DNA of 64,000 nucleotides from an uncultured Spirochaetota bacterium (lineage in GTDB: Bacteria > Spirochaetota > Spirochaetia > SZUA-6 > Fen-1364). This document shows, piece after piece, positions 2-25,418 of this stretch (the stretch's first letter is position 1; every line of letters begins with the position of its first letter). The stretch spans positions 672,001-736,000 of the forward strand of contig CAVTHO010000004.1 in NCBI GenBank assembly GCA_963734545.1. Direction: 5' to 3'. The notes under the pieces are model-generated. The model saw only the letters and a program-made list of their open reading frames with translations, searched no databases and was not told the origin of the DNA. The position numbers and the translations under genes are program-made.

Positions 2-163
2 CGTCTCATCGGGGAGGGCGCCGACAATACCCTCATCGCGAGAAAGCTCTCGATCGCCGAGCAGACAGTGAAAAACCACGTGAGCGTGATCTATTCGAAG
101 CTGCACGTGCACAACCGCATGCAGGCGATGAAGCTTGCCAGCTCCTTGAAGAGTCACTTGTAG
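2..163 (+). CDS. C-terminal fragment of a LuxR/NarL-type HTH regulator (5' end outside window)
   Basis: Manual translation from base 2 gives RLIGEGADNTLIARKLSIAEQTVKNHVSVIYSKLHVHNRMQAM..., matching the LuxR HTH pattern (IA..L.I...TVK.H...I..KL). Stop TAG at 161-163. Confidence 0.85.
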   Translation, partial: RLIGEGADNTLIARKLSIAEQTVKNHVSVIYSKLHVHNRMQAMKLASSLKSHL

Positions 164-285
164 GGCGCCGCCGTACCTTGCACAAATGCCACCGGATACG
201 GCGGCCACCGTACTCGGTGGCATTCGTGGCCGCGAGTGCCACCGAGTACGGTGGCCGCGGTACTCCGTGCAGTGCGGCAGATTTG
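164..285. repeat. Nested cluster of RAAT-hairpin-CGC palindromic elements
   Basis: Three GCCACCG-RRTA-CGGYGGC hairpin units (184-207 +, 201-225 -, 234-258 +) lie inside a split TGCACGG-AGTA-CCG/TGCA unit. That unit lies inside a split AAAT-CTGCCG...GGTA-CGGCGG-CGC unit on the minus strand. Confidence 0.85.
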
Positions 286-383
286 TGAGTACTAGTACTA
301 TTCCGCCGTCAACCGGTACCGCAGTAACTTCTTTTCGCGCCACGCGTGGGATACTATGGCTGCGGGGGGATGAAAGCCCGCAG

Positions 384-1730
384 ATGAACAGGATCCCTGG
401 CGTACTTGCCATGCTTCTCGCCGTCTCAGCGGCCGTCTTCGCCGCCGGGGGGCGTGAAGAGAGCGGTCAGGTCGAGCTCACCGTCGCAACGGTGAACAAC
501 CCAGACATGCTGATCATGCAGCAGCTCTCGGGTTCTTTCACGCGCAGCACGAACATCCGATTGAGTTTCGTCGTGCTTCCGGAAAATGAGCTGCGCCAGA
601 AAGTCACCGAGGACGTCGGACTCGGCTCCGGAAAGTACGACATCATGACCATCGGAACCTATGACGCTCCGTTCTGGGGGAAAAACGGGTGGATCGTTTC
701 CCTCGAGCCTTTCTTTGCCCGGCTTCCGCAGGCGGAAAGAGACGCGTACGACCGGGAGGACCTGCTCCCGTCGATCCGATCCGCGCTTTCGTACAACCAC
801 GCCCAGTTCGCCCTTCCCTTCTACGGCGAGAGCAGCATGGTCTTCTACCGAAAGGACCTGTTCGCACGCGCGGGCCTCACAATGCCGGAGGCGCCCACCT
901 GGAAGCAGATCTACGATTTCGCGATGAGACTGAAGGGCATCGAAAAAGGAACATACGGCATCGTGCTCCGGGGCCTGCCCGGGTGGGGAGAGATCCTGGC
1001 CCCCTTCAACACGGTGATCAACGCATTCGGCGGGAGATGGTTCGACGAGGAGTGGCATCCCGCGTTCGACGAGCCCCCCATGCGTGAGGCATGGGAGTTC
1101 TACAAGAAGATCCTTGCAGATGCGGGGGAGCCCAACCCCGCAACGAACGGCTATACCGAGTGCCTGGCCATCATGCAGAGCGGCAAGGCCGCCCTCTGGT
1201 ACGACGCAACGGTGACCGCGGGCGCGCTGGAAGCACCGGGTTCGAAAGTCGCCGGCAGGATCGGCTACGCGCAGGCCCCGTCCGCCCGGAAAGGCAACAA
1301 TGGCTGGCTCTGGGCGTGGGCGCTCGCCATCGGGTCCTCGTCGCGGCATCCCGACGAGGCTTTCAAGTTCCTCCGGTGGGCGACTGACAGGAGCTATATT
1401 TCCCTGGTCGGCAGCCAGGTCGGCTGGGCGCGCGTCCCCCCGGGCACGAGGGCTTCCACGTACCGCAATCCGCACTACCTTGCCGCCGCGCCTTTCGCCG
1501 GCCGGGTCCTGGCCGCAATCGAAAGCGCCGACTACGAGCACCCGACTCTCGCGCCGGTCCCCTACGTGGGCGTGCAGTACGTTTCCATCCCCGAGTTCCA
1601 GAGCCTCGGAGAAACGGTCTCCCAGCAGCTCGCGGCGTACATTGCGGGACAGAAGACCATCGATGCGGCTCTCGCCGACTCGCAGGCCGCGGCCCTTCGG
1701 GTTGCGCGCGAGGGCGGGTACCTCAAGTAG
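384..1730 (+). CDS. Sugar/polyol ABC transporter substrate-binding protein (SmoE/MtlE-like)
   Basis: Signal peptide MNRIPGVLAMLLAVSAAVFA, then LTVATVNNPDM, ENELRQKVT, PFYGESSM, WLWAWAL and PYVGVQYV motifs typical of sorbitol/mannitol-type SBPs. Confidence 0.9.
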   Translation: MNRIPGVLAMLLAVSAAVFAAGGREESGQVELTVATVNNPDMLIMQQLSGSFTRSTNIRLSFVVLPENELRQKVTEDVGLGSGKYDIMTIGTYDAPFWGKNGWIVSLEPFFARLPQAERDAYDREDLLPSIRSALSYNHAQFALPFYGESSMVFYRKDLFARAGLTMPEAPTWKQIYDFAMRLKGIEKGTYGIVLRGLPGWGEILAPFNTVINAFGGRWFDEEWHPAFDEPPMREAWEFYKKILADAGEPNPATNGYTECLAIMQSGKAALWYDATVTAGALEAPGSKVAGRIGYAQAPSARKGNNGWLWAWALAIGSSSRHPDEAFKFLRWATDRSYISLVGSQVGWARVPPGTRASTYRNPHYLAAAPFAGRVLAAIESADYEHPTLAPVPYVGVQYVSIPEFQSLGETVSQQLAAYIAGQKTIDAALADSQAAALRVAREGGYLK

Positions 1731-25198: not shown

Positions 25199-25201
25199 AA
25201 G

Positions 25202-25285
25202 GGCGCCAGGGCGCAAACACATAGGCGCCAGGGCGCAAACACATAGGCGCCAGGGCGCAAACACATGGGCGCCTGGACGCGCAAA
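25202..25285. repeat. 22-nt tandem repeat GGCGCCAGGGCGCAAACACATA x3 plus a degenerate copy
   Basis: Seen directly. Each unit contains a GCGC-CAGG-GCGC hairpin. Confidence 0.92.
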
Positions 25286-25312
25286 CGCGCGGCGCATTCA
25301 GGCGTCGGTGCC

Positions 25313-25418
25313 GCGGCCACCGTATCTTGCACGGTACTCCGTGCAGTTAGGTGGCATTTGGGCGGCCACCGTATCTTGCACGGTAGTCCGTGCAGTTAGG
25401 TGGCATTTGGGCGGCCAC
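25313..25418 (-). repeat. 49-nt tandem composite element x2 (hairpin nested in hairpin)
   Basis: Minus strand AAAT-GCCACC[TAACTGCACGG-AGTA-CCGTGCAA]GATA-CGGTGGC-CGC twice. The outer part matches the unit at 184-207. Confidence 0.9.

Follow-up and report, generated by a model that had tools for sequence, protein, structure and literature searches.

The closest described counterparts of the elements analysed here are the REP/BIME and REPIN-RAYT systems of E. coli, Pseudomonas and other bacteria: short GC-rich imperfect palindromes that reach hundreds of copies, occur as singles, tandem arrays and mixed-orientation clusters near gene ends, and persist for long within a lineage, all of which holds for the spirochaete repeats as well. 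To our knowledge, REP-type multiplication is known only for GTAG-tagged REPs with RAYTs. Resident palindromic repeats can also be precise landing sites for insertion sequences; IS1397 inserts in the REP loop, and ISPpu9 is named in the literature alongside IS elements that target REP sequences. HUH transposases of the IS200/IS605 type yield a duplication-free, strand-specific insertion geometry, the target tetranucleotide of IS608, an element of this type, being TTAC, and IS630/mariner-type elements give TA..TA flanks. Plant MITEs commonly nest, and the likeness to the spirochaete elements lies in this nesting of small non-autonomous elements. In the accessible text of one survey, the two known REP superfamilies are defined by a GTAG or CGTC end tag, and some REPs lie inside small palindromes (T. 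roseum GTAG-23 within CCGSSCC(n3,4)GGSSCGG, A. variabilis GTAG-15 and H. neapolitanus CGTC-1) (Di Nocera et al. 2013, PMC3733652), while the accessible part of another paper records IS elements that enter REPs at one fixed position (Tobes & Pareja 2006, PMC1525189). The word 'nested' is absent from the accessible text of both, open-access full texts yielded no account of REP-type units that lie within one another at defined junctions, and for nested MITEs in bacteria the open-access texts gave, among the matches listed, only eukaryotic elements or general TE biology.

The locus compared with these systems lies in a window of 64,000 nucleotides, the whole stretch of DNA that was analysed (G000:C4:672001-736000; positions without a contig prefix count from its first base). 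The genome of the window, G000, is an assembly of 5.14 Mb in 10 contigs with 62–63% G+C and 89% completeness, and the closest records of the neighbouring gene are uncultured Spirochaetota/Spirochaetaceae genome bins. Positions 164-286 are intergenic, with the stop codon of a luxR-family gene on one side and a solute-binding protein gene on the other, the latter followed by two ABC permease genes (PF00528 twice); the substrate of this operon was predicted to be a polyol. These 123 bases consist of five canonical REP-like hairpin units, A (26 nt), E (22 nt) and D1, D2 and D3 (25 nt each), whose lengths sum to 123 and which tile the stretch without remainder (Table 1). The 3' half of unit A begins 1 nt beyond the TAG stop of the luxR-family gene. 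Unit E sits between the 5' arm of A and the GGTA loop of A, which is the register found for E elsewhere. The block inside E, made up of D3 and D1, fits junction position 5 of inverted units with a 1-nt ambiguity, and D3 is in turn broken by D2 after its loop plus 3 nt, within the D3 3' arm, at a junction that, again with a 1-nt ambiguity, is compatible with a position directly 5' of NGTA as read on the strand of the insert.

Table 1. Coordinates of the hairpin units, flanking genes and further loci (window positions unless a contig of G000, C4 to C8, is named)
Feature	Position	Strand	Remarks
luxR-family (GerE) regulator gene, 3' end	2..163	+	PF00196, E 1.8e-13
Outer unit A, 26 nt	164-177 + 275-286	minus (loop strand)	halves rejoin into a family-A unit: NAAT, 6-bp arm, GGTA, arm, CGCC
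Unit A, 3' half	164..177	-	loop GGTA + arm CGGCGG + flank CGCC; joins with 275-286
Unit A, 5' half	275..286	-	flank ACAAAT + arm CTGCCG; joins with 164-177
Second-level unit E, 22 nt	178-182 + 258-274	-	rejoined parts give a 7/7 stem
Unit E, 3' end	178..182	-	TGCAA
Unit E, 5' part	258..274	-	CAC, arm TGCACGG, loop AGTA, first CCG of 3' arm
Third-level unit D3, 25 nt	183-201 + 227-232	+	7/7 stem once 202-226 is removed
Fourth-level unit D2, 25 nt	202..226	-	inverted relative to D3
Third-level unit D1, 25 nt	233..257	+	direct tandem with D3
AGTACTAGTACT motif	288..299		two tandem AGTACT palindromes; conserved across the genus; directly beside the nest
Solute-binding protein gene, ABC uptake operon	384..1730	+	PF01547
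Second nested locus	25313..25418	-	family-D host, E between 5' arm and GATA loop; tandem duplicate (49-nt period)
Inverted case, D2 in D3	C4 672203		nest locus
Inverted case, family C in A	C6:159484		
Inverted case, family C in A	C8:647901		
Inverted case, D in E-like unit	C4:560968		
Inverted case, C in C	C7:1010136		
Inverted case, C in E	C7:1021636		
Seventh inverted case	C7:1020868		host with CTG closure
IS200-like element (L013)	C4:158130-161489, ORF 1408-1890	minus	G+C markedly below genome; own end hairpins

Stepwise excision of 202-226, then 183-257, then 178-274 restored 7/7, 7/7 and 5/6 arm pairs (the last with an additional G-T pair). Since each excision gives back a canonical host and the tiling is exact, the nest is four levels deep. 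The original prediction, whose quoted sequence strings are indeed present here on the minus strand, had recognised the nested feature but ended it at 285 and gave it three levels. It had also described three GCCACCG units in alternating orientation; the number is right and the arrangement is another one, as two units are direct (183-232 and 233-257) and the third (202-226) lies inverted inside the 3' arm of the first. The stretch folds with -82.4 kcal/mol as against -54.8 +/- 3.8 kcal/mol for 200 dinucleotide shuffles (z = -7.3), none of which was as stable. No sigma-70-like promoter or intrinsic-terminator pattern was found within positions 1-600, and no Rfam family reached its gathering score, the best match being a plant/animal miRNA hairpin model with 39.8 bits against a threshold of 85. 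The hairpin elements at 164-286, which carry no terminator or promoter pattern, are probably without a dedicated function.

The five units belong to a large repeat superfamily. Among perfect hairpins of G000 with a 7-bp stem and a 4-nt loop, nearly all recurrent ones are NNTA/TANN-looped with CGG/CCG closure. With 7-nt arms, at most one mismatch and an NNTA loop, 613 units were recovered; their arm families include TCCGCGG (124), TCCGCCG (26), TGCGCGG (22), GCCACGG (18) and GTCACGG (18), and their loops AGTA (166), AATA (91) and GGTA (90). This NNTA total is no higher than that of other loop classes (519 to 1033), so that the signal lies in the recurrence of families and not in an excess of hairpins. 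Families A, C and D share the consensus NAAT + arm + RRTA + arm + CG(C), and families E and B the consensus AAC + arm + NNTA + arm + A; what marks the superfamily is the NNTA loop of 4 nt, in most cases AGTA, GGTA or AATA, with a C after it and CGG/CCG as its closure. The units are arranged mainly in direct tandem (period 23–27 nt), and inverted pairs are also present, several of them nested rather than adjacent. In 17 of the 18 other genomes of the genus, the repeat part of the window has matches at many sites; in 12 genomes of the same order outside the genus, no repeat-range match was found among the matches listed, their one match lying in the luxR gene.

These units conform to the description of REPs as GC-rich palindromes of 20–40 nt in high copy. 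They depart from the RAYT-associated families in three respects: their conserved tetranucleotide (RRTA) is the loop and not a GTAG/CGTC end tag, no RAYT flanked by repeats was found in G000 or at 20 loci of the genus, and the units lie inside one another at a fixed point, not merely side by side. Nor does the stretch at 164-286 have the makeup of a BIME-like mosaic cluster with alternating units and defined linkers, as its units interrupt each other, lack linkers and tile exactly. As it lacks the traits that define the RAYT-REP family, we class the feature as of the REP/MITE kind, outside that family.

Some further arrangements of single families were observed in G000. At C6:83522-83660 and many other loci, up to six 23-nt units of family A follow one another in direct tandem, and the loop is uniform inside one array and differs between arrays. 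The family-B hairpin (AAC, TCCGCGG arm, NNTA loop, arm, AAGG) has 33 copies genome-wide, for instance at C5:332466-332540 and C7:943503-943577. Many of them lie inside a different, non-hairpin repeat (...CTCGCC[AC]TCC / GCTAC...), which also exists hairpin-free, with ATG or CTG at that spot.

The junctions of the nests were mapped relative to the host loop, the check that the original prediction had proposed, and family-specific analyses of E, of the 25-nt units and of a further element, G, each gave fixed positions. The E stem-loop has 22 copies in G000, 14 of which carry AAC (once CAC) and A flanks and continue with GGTA (10), GATA (2), GGTG (1) or GACC (1). Host arms read at the E register form at least 5 of 6 pairs in 6 of the 22 copies and at least 4 of 6 in 10, while the eight copies without AAC/CAC flanks gave 0–3 arm pairs. 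As these numbers are small, metagenome contigs were scanned for the 22-nt E pattern, in which AAC and CAA flanks were fixed, so that the sample consists of copies with those flanks; at least 120 stretches matched, with 103 distinct copies bearing full flanks among the matches listed. Within this listed set of 103, NNTA follows E directly in 79 copies (GGTA 57, GATA 15, GCTA 6, GTTA 1). The register (0,4), which corresponds to the boundary between host 5' arm and loop, placed complementary host arms (at least 5/6) around 67 of the 103 copies among the matches listed, its diagonal continuations gave 66 and 43, and every off-diagonal register gave 0–5. By the same criterion of at least 5/6 arm pairs, 72 of the 103 listed copies are nested. 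The host 3' arms among the matches listed include CCGTGGC (27), CCGCGGC (9), CGGCGGC (7), CGGTGGC (5), CCGCGAT (3), CGGTGAC (2) and CCGTGAC (2), with one host belonging to family B. A strict re-survey of the metagenome E loci among the matches listed yielded 40 children at junction positions j=7-9 and none at j=4, 5, 10 or 11; because repeated letters make j=7-9 equivalent, the E cut lies somewhere from the arm/loop boundary to the TA, with a 2-nt ambiguity. The hosts of E share its orientation, and E goes in where their 5' arm meets the loop.

The TGCACGG-AGTA-CCGTGCA unit recurs at 25313-25418, as had been predicted, in a different host stem (GCCACC/GGTGGC) and just 5' of a GATA loop, as a 49-nt tandem duplicate, and the nested composite at C7:1001056-1001122 is likewise duplicated in tandem (two A units, each with E). 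Beside the nested locus at 25313-25418, about four tandem units of ~24 nt (GCGCC.GGGCGCAAACACAT-like) were observed at ~25200-25300; this array is wholly absent from the orthologs in G014 and G002.

The hosts that the 25-nt units enter have the opposite orientation, and the point of entry lies 2 nt beyond the host loop on its 3' side. Strict counts in G000 alone are small, with six inverted and two same-orientation children; all six inverted children are compatible with j=5, that is, immediately 5' of NGTA on their own strand, three of them fitting j=5 only, and none occurs at j=9-12 or 14. The inverted-child matches at 7, 8 and 13 were rejected as spacer pseudo-loops in tandem arrays or as non-family hairpins. 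The same inverted geometry was found in G014 (twice), in G002 and in one metagenome contig. A position just 5' of the RRTA loop, as given in the prediction, is correct for E and not for the 25-nt units. Read on the strand of the insert's NNTA loop, E and the 25-nt units nevertheless follow a common rule: NNTA comes directly after the insert, and no duplication flanks the insert. A host of the same orientation supplies this NNTA as its loop, and an inverted host supplies it as its last two arm bases plus the loop TA.

The third insert class, G, is a 28-nt double hairpin with 24 copies, flanked by TA..TA in 21. It lies within host arms (at least 5/6 pairs) in 19 of the 24, of which 12 have one orientation and 7 the opposite one, and the registers peak sharply at (4,2) and (2,4). 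Whichever way it is oriented, G sits at the TA of the host loop. The host at C5:506986 has an ordinary loop of 4 nt with a single TA in its G014 and G002 orthologs, and TA + 28 nt + TA in G000. The first hairpin of G often carries, within its loop, an interruption of 30 nt made up of a GTGCGCG-AGTA-CGCGCTC hairpin together with GGCC-CGAA-GGCC (in G000 at C5:195923, C5:553265 and C7:150477, for example), a further nesting series.

Searches blind to family did not reach this resolution. Excising every unit and scoring the restored host gave 152 units against 63–106 with control loops, block excision 63 of 723 against 67–86 with shuffled flanks, a split-host scan 33,644 raw matches and 422 after filters, mostly chance, and a flank-motif filter 11 against 7 in the control. 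Such finders fail to separate the signal because of the self-complementary CCGCGG arms, the tandem arrays, the G doublets and chance hairpins in GC-rich DNA, and the genome-wide claim rests on the family-specific analyses. Taken together, units of fixed length are found whole within other units, next to the loop TA, at positions that are specific to the family and coupled to the strand; this holds in many hosts and several species.

Orthologous sites were compared along a tree of the flanking 2.7 kb, (G000,(G014,(G002,L029))), on which G010 and G009 fall outside. G014, L029, G010 and G009 lack the nest entirely, and in them the stop-codon region runs into AGTACTAGTACT. This motif is kept upstream of the ABC operon in the orthologs L002-L012, L014-L016, L029 and L042 and is likely an operator. 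The site adjacent to it holds different hairpin elements in G006, G008 and contigs of two metagenome runs, and AGTACTAGTACT is also a landing spot for different hairpin elements in different species. The sister species G002, an independent assembly, carries the orthologous left 68 nt of the nest at ~84% identity (hand count): the left halves of A and E, and a 25-nt unit that carries another one, inverted, at the same junction. In the inner host, two arm pairs differ between G000 and G002 on both sides with pairing kept. The right 56 nt of the nest are absent in G002, an indel that is not a whole element and has its right edge at a GTACT repeat, so that deletion between loop motifs also shapes these loci. 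In two wetland metagenome runs, contigs join window position 171 to 289 via a single 32-letter unit of the superfamily. The contigs of the four best metagenome runs are short and none spans 164-286, and one run with contigs of 99+% identity covers only 328-478 and 556-700.

The states found at the locus are thus an empty site, a single unit, a left half with one nested unit and the full nest, and a simple series of events at 164-286 along the flank tree was rejected, as it does not fit them. Judged by the sequences, the nest is old, with its left 68 nt common to G000 and G002; as it is missing in G014 and L029, placed between those two by the flank tree, precise loss, recombination or repeated gain is needed. 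L029 groups with G002 on the tree of the downstream gene, and the last ~40 nt of its luxR-family gene are outgroup-like (L029 and L016/L042 versus L014/L015), a likeness that suggests a recombination breakpoint at the intergenic site in L029. Elsewhere, 25313-25418 is represented in G014 by one uninterrupted hairpin of the host family, with neither E nor the tandem duplicate, and G002 has no repeat there; at C7:1001056, G002 has plain A units without E. The nest at C7:1020868 is common to G000 and G014, with stem changes that keep pairing, and is lacking in G002; that at C4:711805 is absent in G014 and masked in G002, and the orthologs of C7:1021636 gave no clean alignment. The polarity of nesting (gain as against precise loss) and its mechanism are what we infer from these comparisons. 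Site-specific entry into pre-existing copies, as originally proposed, is supported by the E register in 67 of 103 distinct metagenome copies among the matches listed and by the uninterrupted hosts at two orthologous loci. The accompanying argument, that replication slippage alone would not produce such nests, holds in so far as slippage cannot put a unit of one family inside that of another, yet slippage did later duplicate nested composites in tandem.

A cognate enzyme was sought in G000 and its genus. G000 has one PF01797 match, a 160-aa IS200-like TnpA (Y1 transposase), and the end hairpins of this element are unrelated to the NNTA repeats. PF01797 genes occur in 12 of 21 genomes of the genus, often in multiple copies and in some with 4–5 matches; no NNTA/CGG-type unit was found beside a PF01797 gene at any of the 20 loci examined in the genus, the end hairpins of the IS200-like copies have, for example, TTTA or TATG loops and other stems, and the repeats are also present in genomes that have no Y1 gene at all (G002 and G010, for example). 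A RAYT origin was rejected on these grounds, with no RAYT found in the 89% complete assembly of G000, unrelated Y1 ends and no repeats beside Y1 genes. An IS630 parent for G was likewise not found, as G000 (89% complete) gave no match to the IS630-type DDE_3 domain (PF13358) and no inverted pair of G half-sites was seen at IS-like spacing. The cognate enzyme may be absent from G000, unrecognised or lost.

We consider it reasonably probable, though well short of assured, that the locus is a stack of mobile REP-like hairpin elements of 22–28 nt that land at the loop motif of resident copies. Each unit would enter as a whole, at a set position with respect to the host loop, presumably on single-stranded DNA with the host hairpin extruded and its loop exposed, and the NNTA loop motif of resident copies would be the landing site of incoming elements. 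G would enter at the host loop TA in either orientation and come to have TA on both sides. Repeated rounds would build the four-level nest at 164-286, and tandem duplication would then copy nested composites. The strand-coupled and duplication-free geometry of E and the 25-nt units resembles IS200/IS605-type HUH chemistry, and on the complementary strand it would amount to insertion 3' of TACN.

The main rival dispenses with an enzyme: nests would arise, and be cut back, when replication switches template, or short homologies recombine, between hairpin copies at the GTAC-like loop core that they have in common. Such a process explains the microhomologies and the GTACT-bounded indel between G000 and G002, as well as the single-unit allele of the two metagenome runs, which also ends at a GTACT repeat, and it would put junctions at or near the loop too. 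Three of the six strict inverted junctions slide by 1–2 nt, which is microhomology, the E junctions are ambiguous over 2 nt, the TA repeats flanking G are mostly extendable to TAC/GTAC, and the searches of G000 and the genus found no cognate enzyme. We nonetheless regard it as unlikely as an account of the nests, since the inserts are whole canonical units of fixed 22, 25 and 28 nt and not variable tracts, three inverted cases have zero microhomology, the orientation of the insert goes with the side of the loop at which it lies, and in dozens of hosts E separates the 7-bp arm from the 4-nt loop cleanly, leaving both intact.

That the multi-tier hairpins are functional composites (a terminator, a stabiliser or a protein-binding site), with nesting reflecting selection for shape, seems to us quite improbable. 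The fold is very stable, nests are conserved across species with 81–90% flank identity, and double changes keep pairing between G000 and G002 in the nest and between G000 and G014 at C7:1020868; these double changes, however, switch between two abundant consensus stems, as gene conversion would also give. The hosts of E belong to many stem families and are far more often uninterrupted, orthologous sites are empty or hold an uninterrupted host, and the promoter, terminator and Rfam searches described above were negative. We attach very little credence to an assembly artefact, in which repeated hairpin units were mis-joined or collapsed. The region does consist of near-identical short inverted repeats, and the contigs of the four metagenome runs never span the nest, the short ones breaking inside it; but the orthologous left part, with a nested unit, is also present in G002, which was assembled independently, nesting of this geometry is seen again at further G000 loci, in G014 and in dozens of metagenome contigs, and the five units tile the stretch exactly.

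If the stack-of-mobile-hairpins reading is taken forward, its nearest precedents differ in instructive ways. As with REP-targeting IS elements, a resident palindromic repeat is the precise landing site, whereas the spirochaete insert is a non-coding hairpin of 22–28 nt from the same superfamily and the process iterates to four levels. The REPs in small palindromes likewise present a hairpin in a hairpin, with target palindromes that also occur empty; in the accessible text of that survey, however, they reach one level and involve GTAG/CGTC-tagged REPs (PMC3733652), whereas the spirochaete hosts are themselves superfamily members, with three insert classes at defined junctions and a depth of four. 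E and the 25-nt units share with IS200/IS605 derivatives a strand-specific position beside a fixed motif without target duplication, the E cut being ambiguous over 2 nt; they differ in that they are single hairpins of only 22–25 nt, and their ends do not match the resident TnpA element, the ends of the IS200-like copies being different. G resembles IS630/Tc1-mariner MITEs in its TA on both sides and in the single TA of the orthologous host loops in G014 and G002, and differs from them in its length of only 28 nt and in its target, which is the TA within a hairpin loop; in G000, no cognate DDE transposase was found, nor terminal inverted repeats to match.

A bolder extension, which we regard as speculative and rather doubtful, is that these repeats form a RAYT-independent superfamily of minimal mobile hairpins of 22–28 nt, in which the loop motif (NGTA, then C) is at once signature and landing site and whose driving enzyme, in an uncultured Spirochaetota lineage, would be a transposase or recombinase of single-strand DNA that has so far escaped recognition. 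Should this hold, every new copy would be a new target, and the elements would grow 'fractally' inside each other. Because dozens of independent junctions define the target (NNTA in an extruded loop), the mechanism is testable with oligonucleotides given a candidate enzyme. The spirochaete repeats would add to the RAYT-linked REPs a large and diverse set of smaller hairpins with precise, strand-coupled insertion into the loops of their kin, without a recognisable RAYT, and they carry a warning for annotation: long, very stable intergenic 'super-hairpins' need not be structured RNAs or assembly errors and can instead consist of tiny mobile units stacked together.
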